NCBI RefSeq assembly: GCF_041909475.1 | Contig: NZ_JAYRDJ010000019.1 | Location: 11,283-75,282 of the forward strand | Source: Niveibacterium sp. | GTDB taxonomy: Bacteria; Pseudomonadota; Gammaproteobacteria; Burkholderiales; Rhodocyclaceae | Reading direction: 5' to 3' | DNA: 64,000 nt | In this document: positions 9,260 to 19,743 of the stretch, piece after piece | Layout of the letters: each line of letters starts with the position of its first letter | How positions within the stretch are numbered: position 1 is the stretch's first letter | Notes under the pieces: generated by a model | What the model was told of the DNA's origin: nothing | The model's input: the letters and a program-made list of their open reading frames with translations, nothing else | Databases searched by the model: none | Translations under genes and position numbers: made by a program

Positions 9260-10288
9260 ATGATGAAACACCGTTCCCGTCACCGTCTGATCGCAGCAAT
9301 GCTGCTGACGATCACCGCGAGCGCCCCGGCGATCGCGACCGAGCGCGGCCAGTTGCGCGCCCTGCTGGGCCTGCCCGGGCAGGATCTGACCTCGCCGGCG
9401 ATGCCGGGTTTCTACGTGCAGGCGAACTACCAGCACTACTACGCCGGCGAGTTCAAGGACGATGAAGGCAACAAGCCGGTCCAAAGTGCAAGCATTCCCG
9501 GCATCGGCAAAGTCAGCGCCGAGCAGGACAGCCAGGTGCGCGCCGACGTGCTCGCCCTGCGCGCGAGCTGGATCTCGGACTACCAACTGTGGGATGGCCG
9601 CGTCGGCGTATCCGCCACCGTGCCGCTGATCAAGACTTCGCTGACCACCAACCTGACCCGCACGACGCCGTTGCCGGCACCGATCGGTGCGCTGGTGGAT
9701 GCCCAGATCGCAAAACTCGCCACGGCCAACACCGGCGAAGAGTCCGGCATCGGCGACACCGAGATCGCCCCCTTCGTCGACTGGCAGACCGATACCTACC
9801 GTATCCTGTTCGCGCCGGCCTTCGTCGCCCCGACCGGCAGCTACGACAAGGACCGCGCGGTCAACCCGGGCGCGGGTAAGTTCTGGACCTTCCGCCCAGC
9901 GCTGACCTTGGCCTACGTGACCGAGAACGGCTGGGAATTCGGCGCGCGCACCACCTACTCGTTCAACACCAAGAACGATGACACCAAGTACACCTCGGGC
10001 CAGTACCTGCATTCGGACGGTGCCGCGATGTACCAGATCCGCGATGGCGTGCGCATCGGCGCGGCAGGCTACATGATCGTGCAGACGACCAAGGACAAGT
10101 CCGACATCGCCGGCGCCGTGGCCGACAACGGCAACAAGGCCCGCGTGTTCGCGCTCGGCCCGCAGCTCGGCTGGCAGACCGAGGACTCGTCGCTCGGTCT
10201 CGAATTCAAGGTGCTGCAGGAATTCGGTGCGCGCAACCGCCCCGAAGGCACGATCGGCTGGCTGCGCCTGATCTACCGCGTGAACTGA
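9260..10288 (+). CDS. SphA / MetA-pathway phenol-degradation-type outer membrane transporter
   Basis: Signal peptide, SGIGD, APTGSYD...VNPG, YTSGQYLH, FALGPQLG, RNRPEG beta-barrel pattern. Confidence 0.8.
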   Translation: MMKHRSRHRLIAAMLLTITASAPAIATERGQLRALLGLPGQDLTSPAMPGFYVQANYQHYYAGEFKDDEGNKPVQSASIPGIGKVSAEQDSQVRADVLALRASWISDYQLWDGRVGVSATVPLIKTSLTTNLTRTTPLPAPIGALVDAQIAKLATANTGEESGIGDTEIAPFVDWQTDTYRILFAPAFVAPTGSYDKDRAVNPGAGKFWTFRPALTLAYVTENGWEFGARTTYSFNTKNDDTKYTSGQYLHSDGAAMYQIRDGVRIGAAGYMIVQTTKDKSDIAGAVADNGNKARVFALGPQLGWQTEDSSLGLEFKVLQEFGARNRPEGTIGWLRLIYRVN

Positions 10289-10309
10289 TCACTCCCATCC
10301 CTCATACGC

Positions 10310-10335
10310 AAAGGCCCCGCACGCGGGGCCTTTTT
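10310..10335 (+). terminator. Rho-independent terminator
   Basis: AAAGGCCCCGC-AC-GCGGGGCCTTTTT. Confidence 0.85.
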
Positions 10336-10463
10336 CATTGGCGGCCGGCATGCTTCGCCGCCGCGGCTGGGCTGCCAAGAAGATCACGCCGCCGCGCACG
10401 CCGCCATGACATGTAGATTTGCCAATGTCATCATCCGGCATTCCCGTTTGAGCCCGTCACCTC

Positions 10464-13343
10464 ATGTCGGTCGCGTCCTTGCTGTCCGCAGTCCTCCCCG
10501 CCTCGCTGTTTTCATCCGAGTCGCGCCTTTACGACTTCGCGCTCGAAGGTGACGCCACGCCGTGGCTCGTTGAGCGCTTCCGCGCACGCGAAGCGCTCTC
10601 CGAACTGTCGAGCTGGCAGATCGATCTGCTGAGTACCGATGCCAACGTCGACACCGGCGCCCTGTTCGGCAAGCAGGCTGCCCTGAGAATCACGCTCGCC
10701 GACGGTGGCCGCATTCAGCGCTCCGGCTACGTCAGCAACGCCGTGCTTCTGGCGGCCAACGGCGGCCTTGCACGCTACCGCTTCACGCTGGTGCCCTGGC
10801 TATGGTTCGCCAACGACACGGCGCAGAGCCGCGTATTCCTCGAACAACCGCTGACGGCAATCATCGAAGCAGTGCTCGCGCCTTACGCGAGCCTGGCGCA
10901 ATGGCGCCTCGCCGACGAGGTGCCCGCCTTCCTCGCCGATCTGCCGCCACGCTCGCTGTGCGTGCAGTACCGCGAAACCGACTACGCCTTCCTCTCACGC
11001 CTGCTCGCCGAAGAGGGCCTCGGCTTCTGCTTCCGCGAGCTGAACGAGGACGGTGCGGCAGCCGAAACGCTCTCGCAACAGGCCCTGCACGAATGGCTGA
11101 TCTTCGCCGACGCCGCAGCGCTGCCGCAGGATCGCTGCGCAGCGTCAGCCGCCGGTGGCGCCGGCCTGCGCTTTCACCGCGCCGCCGCACCGGAGGAGCA
11201 GGACAGCATCCTCGCGTTCGGCGCCGAACGGCGCTTCGCCGCCTCCGTCACCACCCTGCTTTCAACCGACTACAAGGGCGACACCAGCATCAGCGCATCG
11301 CTACCCGCTGCGCGCTCGGTCGGCGGCCCCAACGCGCCAGCGCTGGAGGACTACGACTTCGTTGGCGCCTACGCCTTCGCCAACGCGGGCCTCGCCGAAC
11401 GGTATGCGCGCCTTGCACGTGAAGCGATCGAGGCACGGCAGGAACGCTGGCTCGGTCATGCATCCGTGCGCACCCTACGCCCCGGCACCTGGTTCGATCT
11501 GAAAACAAGCCTCATCGACGACCTCGTGTCACTGCTGCCCGGCGCCGCCAGCGGCAACCAGGCGCGGCGCTTTCTCGTTTGCACCGTCGAAGCGGCCGGC
11601 AAGAACAATCTGCCCGTCGGGCTCGCCGAAGCCGCTGCTCGACTGAGACACGCCGACGACGGCGCGATGGCGCTCTCGCCCGCCTTGCTTGCGGCGAGCG
11701 ACGAACATGGCTTCGCCTGCCACTTCGGCGCGCAACGCGCCGCGATCCCCTGGCACCCGCAACTCACGGATGACACCGGTGCCCGCCTCAACCCGCGCCC
11801 CACCGCGTCCGGCCTGCAGCACGCCGTGGTCGTGGGCGCCAATGGCGAAGAGGTCGCCTCGGGTACGCAGGAGGTGCATACCGATGCGCTGGGCCGCATC
11901 CGTGTGCGCTTCCTGTGGCAGCAGCCGGATGACCCCGCATCATGCTGGGTGCGCGTGGTCACCCGCCACGCAGGGTCGAACGCCGGCACCCGCTTCATCC
12001 CGCGCATCGGGCAGGAAGTCCTGATCAGTTTCATGAACGGCGACATCGATCGGCCGGTGTGCGTCGGCGCGGCCTTCAACGGCCGCGGCGAGAACGGCGT
12101 CGCACCCTCCCCCGGCGGCCGTGCCAGTGCGCCCGATCCGAACGTCTTCACGCTGGCGAACGATCGCGCTGCAAGCGCGCAGGGCAACCTCACTGGGGGC
12201 CATGCACCGCTGTGGCATGCCGCCGGTGCGGGCGATGCGAACCACCGCAACGCGGGCGCGCTCTCCGGCATCCGCAGTCGTGCCTGGGGGGGTGGCGGCT
12301 GGAGCGAGCTGGTGTTCGACGACTCCGACAATCAGCTGCGCACGCAAGTCAGCACCACACAGCAGGCAACAAGCCTCGCGCTGGGTCACCTGATCCACAC
12401 CCGTGACAACTATCGCGGCAGCTTCCGCGGCAAGGGCTTCGAGCTGCGCACCGACGCTTACGGCGCGATCAACGGCGGACGTGGCGTCCTGCTCTCCACC
12501 TACGCACAGCGCGGCAGCGAAGTTGCAGGCGACAACGCGGCCGGCGTCGCGCTCGCGCGCCAGGCACAGAAGCTGGCCGAAGCGATGAACAGCGCCGCGA
12601 AGACGCATCAGACGGTGCCCTACGCGAGCCATGTCGGGGCAGTACGCGCCAACGCCTGCACCCTGACGCCGCAAAAGTCGCTCGCCGCCGCACTCACCGA
12701 AGCGCTCTCCGGTTGCGTCGCCCCGGAAGACCTCGGCGCCGCCTACAGCGATGCCGCGCTACCGATCAAGAAGCAAGGCGTGCCACACAGCGCTGCAGCG
12801 CTGCTCGCCATCTCCGGCAAAGCCGGCATCGCGCTCACCGCCGCCGACAGCATCACGCTCGCCGCCAACGAAACGGCCTTGTTCGCCACTGGCGCGAATC
12901 AGGAGTGGGTTACGCAAGGCAACACGCGGCTGCATACCGGCCAGACGCTTGGCATCCTCGCCGGTGCCGAAAAGGCAGGAGAGGGCGGCATGGGCCTGTC
13001 GATGATCGCCGGCGCCGGCCCGCTGCGGCTCGAAGCCCACAGCGACATCCTGCAGATCGCGGCGAAGGACGATCTGAAGATCCTCTCCGCCAACGCCTCC
13101 GCCGACTTCGCCGCCGCCAAGAAGATCCACCTCGCCACCGCCGGTGGCGCAGCGATCACCATCGAAGGCGGCAACATCACGGTGCAGTGTCCGGGGACGC
13201 TCACGGTGCATGCGAGTCAGAAGAGCTTTGCGGGGCCCGGCAAGCTGAACCCGCCCTTGCCCGATTTTCCGAAGTCGATCTGCGTGGAATGCATGATGAA
13301 GGCAATGCAGAACGGCGCGCCGTTTGCGCGGCAAGGAGCTTGA
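10464..13343 (+). CDS. vgrG: Type VI secretion spike protein VgrG with T6SS_Vgr/DUF2345-type C-terminus
   Basis: CVQYRETDYAFLSRLLAEEG, VHTDALGRIRVRFLW, FIPRIGQEVLISF.NGDIDRP, SEL.FDD, GFELRTD, C-terminal ICVEC. Confidence 0.95.
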   Translation: MSVASLLSAVLPASLFSSESRLYDFALEGDATPWLVERFRAREALSELSSWQIDLLSTDANVDTGALFGKQAALRITLADGGRIQRSGYVSNAVLLAANGGLARYRFTLVPWLWFANDTAQSRVFLEQPLTAIIEAVLAPYASLAQWRLADEVPAFLADLPPRSLCVQYRETDYAFLSRLLAEEGLGFCFRELNEDGAAAETLSQQALHEWLIFADAAALPQDRCAASAAGGAGLRFHRAAAPEEQDSILAFGAERRFAASVTTLLSTDYKGDTSISASLPAARSVGGPNAPALEDYDFVGAYAFANAGLAERYARLAREAIEARQERWLGHASVRTLRPGTWFDLKTSLIDDLVSLLPGAASGNQARRFLVCTVEAAGKNNLPVGLAEAAARLRHADDGAMALSPALLAASDEHGFACHFGAQRAAIPWHPQLTDDTGARLNPRPTASGLQHAVVVGANGEEVASGTQEVHTDALGRIRVRFLWQQPDDPASCWVRVVTRHAGSNAGTRFIPRIGQEVLISFMNGDIDRPVCVGAAFNGRGENGVAPSPGGRASAPDPNVFTLANDRAASAQGNLTGGHAPLWHAAGAGDANHRNAGALSGIRSRAWGGGGWSELVFDDSDNQLRTQVSTTQQATSLALGHLIHTRDNYRGSFRGKGFELRTDAYGAINGGRGVLLSTYAQRGSEVAGDNAAGVALARQAQKLAEAMNSAAKTHQTVPYASHVGAVRANACTLTPQKSLAAALTEALSGCVAPEDLGAAYSDAALPIKKQGVPHSAAALLAISGKAGIALTAADSITLAANETALFATGANQEWVTQGNTRLHTGQTLGILAGAEKAGEGGMGLSMIAGAGPLRLEAHSDILQIAAKDDLKILSANASADFAAAKKIHLATAGGAAITIEGGNITVQCPGTLTVHASQKSFAGPGKLNPPLPDFPKSICVECMMKAMQNGAPFARQGA

Positions 13344-13344
13344 A

Positions 13345-14142
13345 ATGCGGATTGATCCCTTGCCCCCTTCGAACATCGCGGTGCTGACCGAGGCGCTGCG
13401 TCGACACACCTGCGCGGTGGATACATCGGATGCGCCCGACGCACACATCTACGCCGTGGTGGACCAACTGTTTTTGCCTGACGCAGAAAGTCGGCGCCGA
13501 CTGGCCATTTCGCAATGGCCAAACCACAACTTGCTGGACCACCTTGGCGGTGCTGGCGACCATCACTCCGTGTTTCTGGTTGCACTGCCCAAGAACGGCG
13601 AGCGCTTGAGCGCCGCCATCAGAAGACTCTGCCAAGCGTGCGACGGGCGGCCGATGCTGAGCTTTGTCGTATCGCGCGCGCCATTCGCGGCACTCGCCGA
13701 ACATCTACGCAAGTACACGGAAGCCCGCCTGGCGCCGGACGACGACGAGTACCTGCTTCGCATCGGGGATACCCGCGTTCTGAGCGCCATTCTCAACAGC
13801 CTGGGCGATGCTCAACGCGTGACCCTGCTCGCGCCTCTAATTGCCTGGCTGCACATTGACCGCAACGGAAGCCTCATTGAAACCCCCGGTCTTGACAGCC
13901 CCGACCGGCTGGCGCACGACATGCCACACCTCGCTCCTGAGCACTGGCAAGCGCTGATCGACGCGGCCTGGCCTGATGCCGTCCTCGCGCAACTTGATCC
14001 ACTGGCACCCGCCGCATGGCAGGCGGATCTGCCATCGCGGCGGCACGCCGCCGTCACGCAGTGGCTGATGGAAGCCACAGAGATTGGGCATGACGACCCG
14101 GCAACGCAGATTGCATACTGCCTGAGCCAGCTAGAAATCTGA
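13345..14142 (+). CDS. DUF4123-family T6SS effector adaptor/chaperone (Tap/Tec-like)
   Basis: YAVVD, LAEHLRK, YLLRIGDTRVL (family LR..D.RVL motif), LLAPL.AW; directly after vgrG. Confidence 0.8.
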   Translation: MRIDPLPPSNIAVLTEALRRHTCAVDTSDAPDAHIYAVVDQLFLPDAESRRRLAISQWPNHNLLDHLGGAGDHHSVFLVALPKNGERLSAAIRRLCQACDGRPMLSFVVSRAPFAALAEHLRKYTEARLAPDDDEYLLRIGDTRVLSAILNSLGDAQRVTLLAPLIAWLHIDRNGSLIETPGLDSPDRLAHDMPHLAPEHWQALIDAAWPDAVLAQLDPLAPAAWQADLPSRRHAAVTQWLMEATEIGHDDPATQIAYCLSQLEI

Positions 14143-14160
14143 TCGAACAAAAGACACCCC

Positions 14161-14865
14161 ATGGCACCGTCCAAAACCCAACACCTTTGCTGCGGTTTGC
14201 TTATTGCCTTTGGCATCACCATCCCCCGCGCTTGCAATCCACTCGACTCTGCGTCCAGCGAGAAAAAGGAAGGCCCGAACACCTTTACGGCGTCGACCTA
14301 TTCGCTCAACTACAGCAGCAAGTATTTCTTTGATTACACGGTTTACGACACAACCGATAGCAAAATGCCCGCGATTGGTGGCGCGGCGGTCGACCCTTTG
14401 GGGGGCGGAGACCAGGGCTGCTGCATCGCTTTGCCGAAGATGTGGCGCCCCGGATTGAAGGTACTGATCAAATGGAGTTACGCGGACCGCGAAAAGATCC
14501 ACGAAGCGTACTCACGGGAATTCGAAATCCCGCGCTACGCTGAACCTGGCAACCTGTTCGTGACGTTCTACGACGCCAATGACGTCGAACTGGTCGTATC
14601 CCGCTACGAAGCAGGCCATCCGCAATGGCCGGGGCGGATCAAGACCGACCCGATGAGCCATTGCCTCGCGACCGAAGCCAACAAGAAACAGTGTGAGCAG
14701 TGGTCGGCCAGGAACATGACCAGGCCATCCCCGCAGGTGCTGCTAAAGCACTGCAATTTTCAGAACCCGAGTGAGGCATGCCAGTTCTTAATCTCCAGTT
14801 GTGTCGAGGAATTTGGAGAAGAGGCGTGCTCTGAGAAATCGGTCAGTGGTGGAGACGATAAGTGA
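14161..14865 (+). CDS. DUF3304-like T6SS immunity protein, copy 1 (Tli1-like)
   Basis: NY..Y...Y, GGG..GCCIALPK.WRPGLKV.IKW, IPRY.EPG.L.VTFY, HPQWP; upstream of a DUF2235 effector. Confidence 0.8.
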   Translation: MAPSKTQHLCCGLLIAFGITIPRACNPLDSASSEKKEGPNTFTASTYSLNYSSKYFFDYTVYDTTDSKMPAIGGAAVDPLGGGDQGCCIALPKMWRPGLKVLIKWSYADREKIHEAYSREFEIPRYAEPGNLFVTFYDANDVELVVSRYEAGHPQWPGRIKTDPMSHCLATEANKKQCEQWSARNMTRPSPQVLLKHCNFQNPSEACQFLISSCVEEFGEEACSEKSVSGGDDK

Positions 14866-15098
14866 ACGTTCGCTTGGCAGAGCCCTGCAGGGAAACGCAC
14901 CTCGAACCAACTCCGACAGAGTGGGCAATAAGGCGCAAACTCGAACCACCTATCTTCCCTTGCAAAGCCGACCCTGCCCCATGCCATCAAGAAATCTTCT
15001 TAAGCTTTTTCTTCGACGGCACGAACAACAACAAGTACCGCGATACGCCCAATCAAGCGCAAAGCAACGTCGCACGCCTGTTCGAAGCCTGCATCGGC
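14862..15098 (+). pseudogene. 5' fragment (79 codons) of a Tle1/DUF2235 effector, read in frame into immunity copy 2
   Basis: Ungapped match to residues 1-79 of 15824..18223; residues 45-79 identical; no catalytic motifs. Confidence 0.9.
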
Positions 15099-15128
15099 GG
15101 CCCGCGCAAATCAAACTCCGGAGATCCG

Positions 15129-15827
15129 ATGCACAAGAAAAGCATGCTCCTGGCTCTTGCCGCTTGCGTGATCGCCCTCAGCGCCTGCAAGCCGATCAGC
15201 TCTGTTTCTAGCGAGAAGAATAAGAAAGAAGATCCGAATACCTTTACGGCGTCGACCTATTCGCTCAACTACAGCAGCAAGTATTTCTTTGATTACACGG
15301 TGTATGACGCAACGGTACCGACGTTGCCGGCCATCGGCGGTGCGTCGGTGACCCCTCTGGGCGGGGGCGATCAAGGCTGTTGCATCGCTCTGCCCAAAGT
15401 GTGGCGCCCCGGACTGAAGGTGCTGATCAAGTGGAGCAATAGCGACCGGGACAAAACCTTCGACGAGTACTCGCGGGAGTTCGAGATCCCGCGCTACACC
15501 GAGCCGGGCAACCTGTTCGTCACGTTCTACGACGCGAATGACGTTGAGCTGGTCGTCTCCCGCTATGAAGCAGGCCATCCACAATGGCCGGGGCGGATAA
15601 AGGCCGACCCGATGAGCTATTGCCTCGCAACCGAGTCAAAGACGAGACAGTGCGAGCAATGGTCGGCGCGGAACATGACGCGAATGCAACCACCACAGCT
15701 ACTCGAAGGTTGCGATCTGCACAACCCAGACGACATCTGCAAGGATTTGTTAAGGAGTTGCATCGTCGAGTTCGGTCCGGAAGCCTGTTCTGAAGAGGGC
15801 ATTAAAACCGCGAAGGAAGTGCAATGA
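15129..15827 (+). CDS. DUF3304-like T6SS immunity lipoprotein, copy 2
   Basis: GGAG RBS, MHKKSMLLALAACVIALSA-C lipobox, core close to copy 1. Confidence 0.85.
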   Translation: MHKKSMLLALAACVIALSACKPISSVSSEKNKKEDPNTFTASTYSLNYSSKYFFDYTVYDATVPTLPAIGGASVTPLGGGDQGCCIALPKVWRPGLKVLIKWSNSDRDKTFDEYSREFEIPRYTEPGNLFVTFYDANDVELVVSRYEAGHPQWPGRIKADPMSYCLATESKTRQCEQWSARNMTRMQPPQLLEGCDLHNPDDICKDLLRSCIVEFGPEACSEEGIKTAKEVQ

Positions 15828-18223
15828 GCGTCCGTCTTGCGGAACCATGCAGAGATCAACCGCTCTCGTTTACGAAGGCCGAACGCTCAATCGCACTGCA
15901 ACTCAATCCCGCTCAAATCTGCACAAAGAACAACCCCGCCCCCTGCAATCAGGACATCTTCCTGAGCTTTTTCTTCGACGGTACGAACAACAACAAGTAC
16001 CGCGACACGCCCAATCAAGCGCAGAGCAACGTCGCACGCCTGTTCGAAGCCTGCATCGGCACCCCGACGCTGATCAAACCGACTTACGGCGGTGAGGCGG
16101 ACAAGCCGGATTTGAATGGAGCGCCAACAGGCGCAGAGGCGTACTACCGCAAGACCTACATTCCCGGGCTCGGCACCGCGTTCAAAGAAATCGATGACAG
16201 TGGCGTAGGGGCGGACCGTACCGGCGGGCTGGCCGCAGCGCTGCAAGGGGAGGCTCGCGTGGTGTGGGCGCTGCTGCAGGTGACCGAACACTTGCACGTG
16301 ATCCTTTCCGGGGGCAGCTCGATTGCGGGCGCCGCAAACGACGGCAACGTCGCGCGGCAATGCCAGACGAGCCAGGTCATGGTGCGGAACCTGGGCGACG
16401 CGCTGATTGCCGGCCTATCCGTGGCGCCGCCAGCCGAGCGCGCCAAAGCGCTTGCGCGAATGAGCGCACGGCAACAGCGGCTTGAAGTGCTGCAAGGGCG
16501 GGCAAAGACGCTTGAAGCGTCCAATCCAGTCAAGACGAGGCTGACCACCAAGAGCAAGCCCAAGATCACCCGCATCCGGATTTCGGTCTTTGGCTTCTCA
16601 CGAGGCGCAGCCGAAGCGCGCGTCTTTGTGAACTGGCTGCTGGAGGCTTACGGAAGCCGCATTGCGGGCATCCCGTTGCAGATCGACTTCCTCGGCGTGT
16701 TCGATACCGTTGCGTCGGTGGGCCTCGCGCACGGCGTACTGGTGGCCGACGGCCACATGGGCTGGGCGGATGGCGAGAACATGGTCGTACCCGAATCAGT
16801 CAGGCGCTGTGTTCACCTGGCTGCGGCACACGAAGTGCGCGGCAGCTTCCCGCTCGACTCGGTGTGTATCGGCGACGAATTGCCATCGAACTGCAAGGAG
16901 ATCATCTACCCCGGAGTCCACTCGGATGTGGGGGGTGGATATCCGCCGCACGACCAAGGGCGCTCGACAAGCGATGCAGACAAACTCTCACAGATCCCGC
17001 TGGCGCAGATGTATCGCGAGGCACTCATCGCAGGGGTGCCGCTGAGGCTTGAGGCAGACCTCGGTGCAAAGGTCAAAGCAACGTTCAATATCTCCGAGTC
17101 GCTTAAGAGCGCATTCAACGCCTACATCGCCGCAACCCGAACCGGCAAGGTCGCACCAGCGGGCATGAAGGACCCGATGTTCCCGGAAGAAACGCAGCCC
17201 GCAGGGACCGTCGAGCAGATCATGCACAAGCAGTACGGCCACTACCTTGCATGGCGCAAGCTGAGGCTTGGCAACATCCATGCACAGAAGAACGTGCAGG
17301 AGGCGAGAACGGGCTCGCGCGTGCAAGACATTGCCGACCTTAAACTCGCGGACGAAGAGTTGCGCGAAGAGCTCGCCCTGCTGAACACGCCGGTATGGCG
17401 ACGCGCGCTTTCGGCCACTTCCCTGCTGGGCGCCATTGAAGCAGCCGCTCAGCAAGAAAAGTTCGCAGACTGGGGCGAGATTCGTCCGATCTGGGAGCAC
17501 GCCCATCTCACTCCGCAGAATGACCAGGCGGTCATCGAACTCTTCGATCGCTATGTCCATGACTCGCGCGCGTGGTTCAAGATTCTCGCGAGCGATGATG
17601 CAGACTGGTTCGACAGTGTCGGCCCGAACGGAGAAAAGAAAGAAGGCGAGCTCGCAAGAAAGACCAAGGCAAGAATCAAAGAGCTTGAGCAGGAGCGGGC
17701 GCAACTGGTGCGCAACGCCGAGCAGCTGCGCGCTGCAAAACCGCAAACTGTGTCCGCCGTTGGCAATTTGGCGACAGCGCGCTCCGGGCCGGCTTACAAC
17801 GTGATGGTAGCCCCCCAGTCGGACCAAATGCGTGCCCAGTGGCTGGCCGCCACCGAAGCGCGAATCGCGGCATGCGACAAGGAAATCGCCGCCTACAAGA
17901 ACGGCACAAAGACCTTCCTGAACCGCGGCGCGATGAATCACGAGATGTATTCGATGTGGGGCTACCTGCGCTGGCGCCGTATCTACACGACCGGTTCGCC
18001 ACGCCCGCCCAAGCTCGTGTACAAGCCTGTCGATCGTGCCGCGGCGCTCAAAGCGCTGGATCAACGCCAGCGCGACTACATGGCCGCATTGCGCAAGGGG
18101 ATTGATGAGGCGCGCGCAAACGTTCAGGCGCAGAACGGTGATTTGGCGGCCTTCGACCGTTCACAGCAGTACATCATGGAATACACCAGCGCATGGATGG
18201 CCAAGGAGCGGGCGGCAATCTGA
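15824..18223 (+). CDS. tle1: T6SS phospholipase effector, Tle1 / DUF2235 family
   Basis: FFDGT, GFSRGA (GxSxG), FLGVFDTV, HSDVGGGY motifs giving a Ser-Asp-His triad; vgrG/adaptor/immunity context. Confidence 0.9.
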   Translation: MSVRLAEPCRDQPLSFTKAERSIALQLNPAQICTKNNPAPCNQDIFLSFFFDGTNNNKYRDTPNQAQSNVARLFEACIGTPTLIKPTYGGEADKPDLNGAPTGAEAYYRKTYIPGLGTAFKEIDDSGVGADRTGGLAAALQGEARVVWALLQVTEHLHVILSGGSSIAGAANDGNVARQCQTSQVMVRNLGDALIAGLSVAPPAERAKALARMSARQQRLEVLQGRAKTLEASNPVKTRLTTKSKPKITRIRISVFGFSRGAAEARVFVNWLLEAYGSRIAGIPLQIDFLGVFDTVASVGLAHGVLVADGHMGWADGENMVVPESVRRCVHLAAAHEVRGSFPLDSVCIGDELPSNCKEIIYPGVHSDVGGGYPPHDQGRSTSDADKLSQIPLAQMYREALIAGVPLRLEADLGAKVKATFNISESLKSAFNAYIAATRTGKVAPAGMKDPMFPEETQPAGTVEQIMHKQYGHYLAWRKLRLGNIHAQKNVQEARTGSRVQDIADLKLADEELREELALLNTPVWRRALSATSLLGAIEAAAQQEKFADWGEIRPIWEHAHLTPQNDQAVIELFDRYVHDSRAWFKILASDDADWFDSVGPNGEKKEGELARKTKARIKELEQERAQLVRNAEQLRAAKPQTVSAVGNLATARSGPAYNVMVAPQSDQMRAQWLAATEARIAACDKEIAAYKNGTKTFLNRGAMNHEMYSMWGYLRWRRIYTTGSPRPPKLVYKPVDRAAALKALDQRQRDYMAALRKGIDEARANVQAQNGDLAAFDRSQQYIMEYTSAWMAKERAAI

Positions 18224-18298
18224 AGCCAAGCACCATGCTTGTTGCCGCGCGCTGTTTCCCTGTGCCGGACGTTCAGTCGAATGAGAACCCCGAGAGAA

Positions 18299-18862
18299 AT
18301 GAACAAACACTTGAAGTGGACCACCCGCTGCGCACTTTCGGTGCTCGCACTGTCACTCATCGTCGGCGGTTGCAAGAGCCGCGAGGAGCAGTTGGAAGCC
18401 GAGCGTACGCAAGGCGCCAAGTTGGTGGAGGACCAGGCTGCCAAAGCAAAGGGCATCGGCCAGGCGCTTCAAAATGATGGTCAGAAGGCAGCCGAAGAGG
18501 TTGCGGCAGGTGTCGGCAAGGTATTCAGCGGTGTCACGCAAGGCCTGGACCGCGCGGCCGAAGTGCACATCGTCGTGGATGGTGGCGCAGAAAAGCTCGG
18601 GCTGAAGAGTGAACGGGCCGTGTTGGAAGTTGGATCCTCCGGCTCGAAGAATGCACTGAAGGCTTACGTGCTGGCATCGCAGAAGTTCAAGGGCACGCTA
18701 CACGTACGCGGGCTTGACGCACATAACCGTGAAGTGGGTCGCAGCGCAAAGGTCGAATACGCGTTGGACGCGGACGACGCGCAGTATCTGCATTTTGAGT
18801 TCGACGCCGCGACGCCCATGACGCGCGTCGCGAAATGGGTGCTGTGGGCAACAGCCTCCTGA
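18299..18862 (+). CDS. Hypothetical lipoprotein
   Basis: MNKHLKW...LSLIVGG-C lipobox; helical N-half, beta-rich C-half. Confidence 0.7.
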   Translation: MNKHLKWTTRCALSVLALSLIVGGCKSREEQLEAERTQGAKLVEDQAAKAKGIGQALQNDGQKAAEEVAAGVGKVFSGVTQGLDRAAEVHIVVDGGAEKLGLKSERAVLEVGSSGSKNALKAYVLASQKFKGTLHVRGLDAHNREVGRSAKVEYALDADDAQYLHFEFDAATPMTRVAKWVLWATAS

Positions 18863-18993
18863 GCTGAGAGGCGATCGGACATAACAACGGCGGCGCGCGC
18901 CGCCTCGGCCGCCAACGCGATCGCCTTGTCGCGCTCTGTGCGCCATCGCGACTTTGCGGCACACTGAGGCGACTCCCTTTTTCGCTCGCCGCA

Positions 18994-19743
18994 ATGACGC
19001 GCCTCCGGATCTGCTCGTACAACATCCACAAGGGTTTCTCGCAGTTCAACCGCCGCATGGTGATTCATGACCTGCGCGAGCGGCTGCGGGGGTTGAATTC
19101 GGATGTGGTGTTCTTGCAGGAGGTGCAGGGGCTGCATCTGGGGCATCAGGCGCAGCACGACGACTGGCCGGCGATGCCGCAGCACGAGTTTCTCGCGCAG
19201 GGCAACTGGCAGCAAACGGCGTATGGCGGTAACGCGGTGTATCGGCAGGGGCACCACGGCAATGCGCTCATTTCGAAGCTGCCGATCCTGACCGCGGATA
19301 ACCAGGATGTGTCGCTGACCCGCTTCGAGCGACGCGGCCTGCTGCATTGTGTGCTGGGCATGGACAACGGTGTGCCGCTGCACGCGATCTGTGTGCATGT
19401 GTCGCTGACCGATGCGCAACGTCGGCGCCAGCTCTCTAGCCTGATCGAGCGGGTGCATGAGGAGATTCCGCCGGACGCGCCGGTGATCATTGCCGGTGAC
19501 TTCAACGATTGGCACAGCAAGGCGAACGAGTGGCTCGCGCGCCAGCTCGGTATGCAGGAGGTGTTTACCGAACTGACGGGGCGGCCGGCGCGCAGCTTCC
19601 CGAGCAAGCTGCCTTTGCTCACGCTCGATCGGATCTACGTACGCCACCTGCGCCCCACCCAGGCCGAAGTGTTGCGCGGCCATGGCTGGGCGAACGTATC
19701 GGACCATGCGCCGCTCACTGCGGAGCTGGTCTACACCGGCTGA
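18994..19743 (+). CDS. Endonuclease/exonuclease/phosphatase family protein (YbhP-like)
   Basis: SYNIHKG, LQEVQG, GDFNDW, LDRIY, SDHAPL. Confidence 0.93.
   Translation: MTRLRICSYNIHKGFSQFNRRMVIHDLRERLRGLNSDVVFLQEVQGLHLGHQAQHDDWPAMPQHEFLAQGNWQQTAYGGNAVYRQGHHGNALISKLPILTADNQDVSLTRFERRGLLHCVLGMDNGVPLHAICVHVSLTDAQRRRQLSSLIERVHEEIPPDAPVIIAGDFNDWHSKANEWLARQLGMQEVFTELTGRPARSFPSKLPLLTLDRIYVRHLRPTQAEVLRGHGWANVSDHAPLTAELVYTG

Follow-up and report, generated by a model that had tools for sequence, protein, structure and literature searches.

In type VI secretion system (T6SS) arrays of Vibrio cholerae, a horizontally acquired effector-immunity module replaces the resident effector while the resident immunity gene is kept (Kirchberger et al. 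2017, PMC5361080). Homology-facilitated illegitimate recombination has been proposed as the route, with frequent homologous recombination afterwards that gives rise to mosaic loci (PMC5361080). Here, we analyzed a stretch of 64,000 nucleotides (nt) from Niveibacterium sp. (contig NZ_JAYRDJ010000019.1, positions 11,283 to 75,282; hereafter the window), which carries a T6SS operon for the phospholipase effector Tle1. Between two tli immunity genes of this operon lies the 5' piece of a second tle1 allele (the stub), which reads in frame into the downstream tli. The displacement and mosaic pattern of V. cholerae fitted the window and two related loci, L005 and L002. However, the order in V. cholerae is effector then immunity, with old immunity genes accumulating downstream, whereas immunity precedes the effector in the window, so that the relic is a 5' effector stub between two immunity genes. 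Also unlike V. cholerae, the stub retains its start codon and stays coupled to the old immunity gene, and in this lineage its frame continues into the next one.

The Pseudomonas aeruginosa locus vgrG4a-tla1-tli1b-tli1a-tle1 has the same gene families and order as the window, including two DUF3304 lipoprotein genes (PMC13133936), and tli1/tli1b of enteroaggregative Escherichia coli, as cited in that paper, were grouped with it as a likeness. One of the two P. aeruginosa immunity genes is regarded as redundant or in decay, Tli1b being a proposed pseudogene by frameshift (PMC13133936). Unlike the window, no tle1 stub between the tli genes is described for that locus (PMC13133936). The P. aeruginosa and window proteins shared low sequence identity, and the NCBIfam matches fell below the cut-offs.

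In Rhs and contact-dependent inhibition (CDI) systems, displaced orphan modules keep a short conserved piece of the toxin gene, a homology handle for recombination with the main gene; the arrays expand and contract, and the orphans can be reactivated as toxins. That handle lies upstream of the variable 3' toxin domain, whereas the window keeps the 5' end without the catalytic part, and a stub of this type therefore archives only immunity genes, not toxins. Since the immunity gene precedes the toxin gene at Tle1 loci, displacement there archives units of a tli plus a tle1 5' stub. Such (tli-stub)n arrays occur with varying copy number in several Betaproteobacteria (the Uliginosibacterium-like window, Herbaspirillum, Janthinobacterium and metagenomic lineages) and are a variant of the known orphan-immunity arrays. 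No description of them was found in the searchable literature, and a search for truncated or partial tle1 returned nothing relevant.

Organization of the locus

We read the locus as an ordinary T6SS Tle1 orphan-immunity array in which the stub is an incidental in-frame remnant without a function of its own, and we put the probability of this reading at about 0.75. The best reading of the in-frame fusion is that a tle1 remnant in decay, refreshed again and again by recombination, is incidentally in frame. The features of the operon are as follows (aa, amino acids; ORF, open reading frame).

10464..13343, + strand: vgrG, the spike gene that opens the operon, 959 aa (Pfam Phage_GPD, Phage_base_V, T6SS_Vgr, DUF2345)
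13345..14142, + strand: DUF4123 adaptor gene (Tla1-like), 265 aa (PF13503, E 2.8e-14; NCBIfam Tla1, E 7.7e-16, below the curated cut-off)
14161..14865, + strand: tli-1, DUF3304 immunity lipoprotein gene, 234 aa, loop SYADREKIHEAY (PF11745, E 7e-13)
14725..14963, + strand: hypervariable block comprising the C-terminal tail of tli-1 and stub codons 1-34 (identity drop versus L005)
14862..15827, + strand: continuous open frame of stub, linker and tli-2, 321 aa (ORF list)
14862..15104, + strand: tle1 5' stub, codons 1-81 of the displaced tle1 allele, GTG start (gapless codon alignment to tle1)
14971..15104, + strand: conserved 5' tle1 block within the stub (repeats 15933-16066 directly over 134 nt at 91%, with perfect runs of at most 36 nt)
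15105..15128, + strand: junction or linker with the tli-2 Shine-Dalgarno sequence GGAG (15120-15123), in frame within the 321-aa ORF (sequence)
Stub/tli-2 boundary, + strand: junction peptide of the 321-aa frame, GGPRKSNSGDPMHKK (GPRKSNSGDP-MHKK; translation)
15129..15827, + strand: tli-2, DUF3304 immunity lipoprotein gene, 232 aa, lipobox LSAC, loop SNSDRDKTFDEY (PF11745, E ~7e-13; NCBIfam Tli1a_fam, E 7.7e-16, below cut-off)
15824..18223, + strand: full-length tle1, gene for the phospholipase effector, 799 aa, with GFSRG motif (PF09994, E 2.5e-23)

All genes, in the order vgrG, DUF4123 adaptor, tli-1, stub, tli-2 and tle1, were on the + strand. The GTG of the 321-aa ORF (14862-14864) overlapped the TGA of tli-1 (14863-14865), and the ATG of tle1 (15824) overlapped the TGA of tli-2 (15825-15827). 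Moreover, tli-2 had its own ATG at 15129 behind the GGAG at 15120-15123, and the gene-caller product P0001 begins there. The layout, 321-aa frame, overlaps, GGAG, lipobox and gapless stub alignment given by the initial annotation all held on re-examination. Its division into 79 codons of tle1 and 10 unrelated codons was right as a layout, but homology to tle1 extended at least to codon 81, and the truly foreign part of those 10 codons would be only about 12-24 nt. A further extension to tle1 nt ~256 (window 15116) through a 1-nt deletion was weak (p ~0.02) and seen in one pairing only; being marginal and absent in the other pairings, it was not relied on.

The full-length tle1 was assigned to the Tle1 family by its catalytic domain and GFSRG nucleophile, with vgrG and the DUF4123 gene directly upstream. 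It matched the structures PDB 9j3f (E 1.5e-92) and 4o5p (E 3.6e-50), the alignment to 4o5p beginning only at residue 38, and it was 91-92% identical to the tle1 genes of L002 and L005. The stub lacked the catalytic domain: the 321-aa ORF had no PF09994 match and no GFSRG, which lies at residues ~264-268. The sole promoter-like site within 10200-19100 was at 10406-10434, just upstream of vgrG, and no internal promoter or terminator signal above chance was found in that interval.

Origin of the array

The metagenomic contig L002 had the same flanking genes as the window with one tli and one tle1. Colinearity between the two ran to 14720 (88%) and resumed at 15933 (91%). Because tli-1 and its upstream DNA were colinear with this single-tli locus, tli-1 is, on synteny, the positional orthologue of the single tli in L002. 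Single sets of vgrG, DUF4123, tli and tle1 were likewise found in Chitinimonas (L006) and about 10 other metagenomic loci. The window and L005 thus held two tli and one tle1 where L002 and L006, in the same synteny, held one of each, as expected of an orphan-immunity array.

We further compared the two array units, which formed head-to-tail direct repeats with a period of 959-962 nt and 82-91% identity. Between stub and tle1, codons 1-10 were identical at 20/30 nt, with synonymous changes only beyond the first two codons; identity was 35/81 nt (43%) over codons 11-37 and 116/126 nt (92%) over codons 38-79, and the protein was identical over codons 45-79 with 5 synonymous nt differences. The synonymous saturation of codons 1-10 shows that the two alleles had diverged for long under selection before truncation. 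For the left end of unit 2 (linker and tli-2 signal peptide, ~90 nt), neither the corresponding end of unit 1 nor the DUF4123-tli spacer offered a homologue. The alternative loop types of the two tli also occurred singly in other loci, as expected of distinct alleles. The earlier proposal that a new tli-tle1 cassette ousted an older tle1 was supported by L002, by the colinearity of tli-1 and by the foreign 5' end of tli-2. Similarly, its view that the stub came from a different allele and not from a fresh duplication in place agreed with the 82-91% nt identity, the unrelated 5' ends and the saturated synonymous sites.

Based on these comparisons, the ancestral locus would have carried a single tli-tle1 pair, which a second tli-tle1 allele then entered. 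One end of the incoming allele would have joined illegitimately inside the resident tle1, after the conserved 5' block (codon ~81-85), and the other end by homologous recombination further downstream, so that the old tli-1 survived together with the opening ~80 codons of the toxin gene it had accompanied. We infer the illegitimate join, with which the single shared junction is consistent; a donor configuration was not found among the loci compared. The array has since been inherited and reshuffled by homologous recombination, using the stub conserved block (codons 38-79) and the tli cores as homology patches, and the variable block (tli C-terminal tail and tle1 N-terminus) and the Tli specificity loops have been exchanged with the alleles of other strains. 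Both tli genes would be retained for immunity to two Tle1 specificities. The stub is transcribed with the operon, is probably translated from its weakened GTG, and would read into tli-2 by chance of frame, with tli-2 still produced as a normal lipoprotein from its own GGAG/ATG.

Mosaic structure of the locus

The block 14725-14963 was ~50% identical to L005, versus 88-92% in the flanks, and the proportion of synonymous differences (pS) between window and L005 over stub codons 1-44 was 0.86, that is, saturated. Saturation together with ~50% identity indicated that the 5' block of the stub was imported by recombination with other alleles and had not diverged in place. The tle1 genes of the window and L002 were 91% identical, yet unalignable before codon 37. 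In X14, a groundwater run, the equivalent block next to tle1 (15693-15887) was replaced by 192 unrelated nt, and between the window and L005 the Tli loop types were switched between array positions. The conserved block of the stub (14971-15104) is a substrate for homologous recombination or gene conversion. Crossovers must resolve within it (codons 38-79), which would explain why codons 45-68 carry 5 synonymous changes and none that replaces a residue.

The same hypervariable pattern, covering the Cys-rich C-terminal tail of tli and tle1 codons 1-37, was seen at 14725-14963 and at 15693-15932, and it recurred when the stub copies of L009 or of L026 were compared. Tle1 begins with ten residues (M-x-V-R-[LF]-A-E-P-C-R; window 15824-15853, all relatives) that were near-invariant across the subfamily, despite saturated synonymous change and the hypervariable segment immediately after them, and may be a loading signal.

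The junction in relatives

Metagenome contigs scanned with the fusion/Tli protein alignment as a guide gave no matches; a DNA pattern for the FFDGTNNNKYRDT block then gave 17 loci. The stub-tli-2 junction was found in at least 6 metagenomes at 99% identity or more. Contigs from independent metagenomes (L003, X1, X3 and X5) crossed both junctions at 99% identity or more without an indel, and the structure is therefore not an assembly artefact. The same junction was present at ~88% identity in L005, a metagenome-assembled genome (MAG) labelled 'uncultured Uliginosibacterium sp.' (L001 is of the same lineage). The order in L005 was DUF4123, tli, an 18-nt gap, an ATG-started stub, a 30-nt linker, tli and tle1, with a 319-aa open frame; a 321-aa-type open frame was partly present in L001 and L003. 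The linker codons 80-89 were identical at 23/30 nt between window and L005. The X14 contig, ~5% diverged, was gapless across stub, linker and tli-2.

An exhaustive phmmer search with the 321-aa product against 1.84 billion representative proteins returned only one other protein spanning stub and Tli, P0002 of the L005 lineage. The junction and frame that the initial annotation had proposed to look for thus recurred within one junction lineage and nowhere else among these representatives. Longer Tli homologues (P0110, P0113, P0116, P0125 and others) were rejected as fusions, since their ~100-residue extensions were transmembrane helices and not Tle1.

Independent arrays of tli and tle1 stubs

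A profile search with Tle1 N-termini retrieved ~97 short proteins, and the genome contexts revealed further (tli + tle1 5' stub)n arrays. These arrays and one longer remnant were as follows.

L024 1204-5950: Herbaspirillum rubrisubalbicans array, two stubs (genome context)
L025 7248-11033: Herbaspirillum sp. DW155 array, one stub (genome context)
L026 3604-15109: Janthinobacterium rivuli array, four stubs (genome context)
L027 and L029 5258-10743: metagenomic lineage arrays, 2 units (L027) versus 3 units (L029) (genome context)
L009 2067-2893: longer tle1 remnant, ~280 codons (sequence)

The junctions fell at different tle1 codons (~66-72, 70-105, ~100 and ~280). In L024 and L025 the stubs were separate ORFs, one L024 stub having an internal deletion. 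Two of the four L026 stubs were truncated or disrupted, and all tli copies there were 206-207 aa. The L009 stub was frameshifted exactly at the GFSRG nucleophile motif and, in another frame than the next tli, continued ~145 nt past the start of that gene. Every tli copy in the independent arrays was full length. Intact tli against decayed stubs, which we regard as the strongest argument, points to selection that acts on the immunity genes rather than the stubs. The stubs were annotated as hypothetical proteins of 66-123 aa. They may mislead gene callers and effector predictors; they also mark past toxin replacements and supply homology for shuffling immunity alleles.

The profile search also found short Tle1 N-terminal proteins in Iodobacter, Noviherbaspirillum, Ralstonia and Xanthomonas genomes. 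In L026, a 125-aa ORF at 13037-13414 was near-identical to the C-terminal part of the DUF4123 adaptor of the locus (1 residue differs after the first five) and preceded further tli copies downstream of a second tle1. This adaptor 3' stub suggests a second kind of duplication unit, with its left boundary in the adaptor gene.

Selection on the stub frame and its expression

The ratio of replacement to synonymous substitution rates (dN/dS) over stub codons 1-79, window versus L005, was 0.11 overall. This value is misleading, in that the 5' part was imported and had not diverged in place. In codons 69-89, which were inherited in place, 14/60 nt differed, with 9 replacement and 5 synonymous changes, and purifying selection was thus not apparent there. 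The test on the stub suggested in the initial annotation therefore gave a low overall figure from a saturated or imported 5' part and relaxed change in the remainder. The L005 stub carried N69K, L73P, C77R and I78V within the SNVARLFEACIG motif, which was unchanged in every full-length tle1 compared; the motif core S68, N69, V70, A71, R72, L73 and E75 was invariant or nearly so in the Tle1 N-terminus alignment (A3). The dN/dS of the linker was ~0.7 between window and L005. The stub start was ATG in L005 and was weakened to GTG in the window lineage.

An in-frame join of stub and tli-2 has a prior of ~1 in 3 and by itself is not beyond chance. The chance of no stop after 26 substitutions in codons 35-89 was 0.42-0.47, and with retention by chance at ~0.45 the stop-free frame was rejected as an argument for selection. 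An AlphaFold2 model of the 321-aa product, run on alignment A4, gave confidence scores (pLDDT) below 50 for all but a dozen of residues 1-139 and of 70-85 for the Tli beta-sandwich (residues 142-233). The fusion frame was kept in one junction lineage only.

Several observations nevertheless weigh against a functionless stub. The overall dN/dS was low, and codons 45-68 showed 5 synonymous and no replacement changes between window and L005. The frame was open in all three diverged lineages with the shared junction, and there were 0 indels in 165 nt despite 26 substitutions. The start codon was kept in the window and L005, and the window Shine-Dalgarno sequence was good (GGAG 7 nt upstream). The AlphaFold2 alignment was shallow, with 8 sequences. 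In addition, the region of P. aeruginosa Tle1 before FDGT holds adaptor and VgrG contact residues (PMC13133936), and the stub peptide could in principle bind. We attribute the low dN/dS to import or gene conversion from a functional tle1, with direct selection on the peptide a formal possibility among so few lineages.

Identical RNA contigs in a biofilm metatranscriptome (X10) covered 14516-15064, which spans the tli-1 3' end and most of the stub and includes a contig at 14715-15064. Identical contigs of X10 also covered tle1 and the downstream lipoprotein gene (18575-18744), and wastewater RNA libraries held scattered tli-2 contigs. No RNA contig crossing the junction was found in the metatranscriptome or the extra RNA libraries examined.

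Alternative explanations

One alternative, which we consider unlikely, is that the peptide is meaningless and its translation is kept open by selection, to avoid Rho-dependent polarity and out-of-frame ribosomes over the tli-2 start and so protect tli-2 and tle1 expression. The operon genes are tightly coupled by 4-nt overlaps and no internal promoter was predicted. The stub frame stops at the next tli start (ATGA in L024, L025, L027 and L029) or ~10 nt before it (L026), and fuses in frame in the window and L005, which makes three independent junction types in all; start codon and frame were kept in the window, L005 and X14. However, each configuration has a prior of ~1 in 3 with only 4-5 independent junctions known, and the frame would stay free of stops by chance almost half the time. 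The L009 stub runs ~145 nt out of frame into the next tli, one L026 stub ends 181 nt before the next tli with that tli intact, and tli-2 has a good Shine-Dalgarno sequence and ATG of its own.

Slightly less probable was an in-place tandem duplication of tli and the tle1 5' part by unequal crossing-over, followed by divergence or gene conversion, with no foreign cassette. It would fit the head-to-tail repeats of ~960 nt. Amplification does occur, since arrays elsewhere vary in copy number (L027 versus L029) and L026 and L024 hold near-identical units. It is at odds with the ~90 nt at the left end of unit 2, for which the left end of unit 1 and the DUF4123-tli spacer had no counterpart. Stub codons 1-10 differed at almost all synonymous sites, and the jump from 43% identity in codons 11-37 to 92% in codons 38-79 also argues against it, as does the finding that the two tli carry both alternative loop types, each seen as a single allele elsewhere (L002, L004).

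We regard as improbable that Tle1 5' stubs in general (~80-120 residues: MxVRFAEPCR motif, variable segment and first strand) are kept as small coupled products or as a Tli-2 extension, which would engage the DUF4123 adaptor or VgrG tail or tune the expression of archived immunity genes. If true, this would explain why many betaproteobacterial arrays keep stubs with intact starts.

The last alternative was that the 321-aa chimera or the stub peptide is functional, whether as a decoy or regulator of DUF4123 or the VgrG tail, as an immunity protein loaded by the T6SS, or as a cytoplasmic or membrane-anchored form of Tli-2. For it speak the frame open in three lineages, the retained N-terminal MxVR[LF]AEPCR motif and the transcription of the stub. 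In P. aeruginosa, binding to Tla1, the DUF4123 adaptor, requires Tle1 R37, and R47/K61 make contact with the tail of VgrG4a, all three residues being upstream of FDGT (PMC13133936). The premise that the Tle1 N-terminus aids loading thus stood in part, but the Tle1-Tla1/VgrG4a interface also uses V53, R107 and D429, outside or beyond the 80-residue fragment (PMC13133936). Moreover, a motif that is otherwise invariant has four replacements in the L005 stub, L73P and C77R among them, and the linker changes at a near-neutral pace. As a piece of the alpha/beta-hydrolase core, the stub comprises one strand plus a partial helix and scored below 50 in pLDDT, its variable N-terminal part is swapped freely while VgrG and adaptor stay 85-95% identical, and its start codon was weakened to GTG. 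The fusion is confined to this lineage among the 1.84 billion representatives, and independent stubs were frameshifted or truncated. With relaxed constraint, no predicted fold, one lineage and decayed stubs elsewhere, the secreted immunity protein or adaptor decoy that had been suggested is not supported as a selected product; we consider any such function very improbable and infer that the chimera has no role, so that bench work on the decoy hypothesis can be saved.

Specificity of the two immunity genes

The two tli differed in loop type, with SYADREKIHEAY in tli-1 and SNSDRDKTFDEY in tli-2. The only tli of L002 had loop type SNSDRDKTFDEY, and L002 Tle1 equals window Tle1 at residues ~409-430. 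The tle1-adjacent tli of L005 had loop type SYADREKIHEAY, and L005 Tle1 differed from the window exactly at those residues. L006 (Chitinimonas) neither supported nor contradicted this co-variation. The positions in the window are as follows.

17049-17114: variable Tle1 patch, residues ~409-430 (loop co-variation)
14464-14499 / 15435-15470: tli loops (loop co-variation)

An AlphaFold 3 model of the P. aeruginosa pair places Tli1a loop 69-92 in contact with Tle1 residues 14-16 and 438-446 (PMC13133936). By HMMER alignment to 4o5p, that contact region corresponds to the variable patch of the window Tle1. Across three loci only, the co-variation suggests that the tle1-adjacent tli is cognate and the other tli an orphan specificity, and that the window and L005 lineages would be reciprocally immune. 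In the window, tli-2 is likely cognate to the resident tle1 and tli-1 is likely the orphan. Tle1 residues ~409-430 and the Tli loop, again from three loci only, are a candidate specificity interface that can be tested.

Other observations

The tli-1 lipobox was IPRAC in the window and ILSAC in L003, X1, X3, X8 and X9, and the tli-2 lipobox was canonical LSAC. Relative to L003 and the same four runs, six clustered substitutions at 14202-14242, in the tli-1 signal peptide, gave rise to IPRAC. Either an assembly error beside the repeat produced this window-only form, or the orphan Tli has truly lost its lipidation.

Downstream, between tle1 and an Exo_endo_phos gene, lies a 187-aa lipoprotein ORF (window 18299-18862) with the signal MNKHLKWTTRCALSVLALSLIVGGC. 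It matched no Pfam or NCBIfam family, and neither L002 nor L005 had it there. This ORF may be one more orphan immunity gene or else an insertion unrelated to the array.

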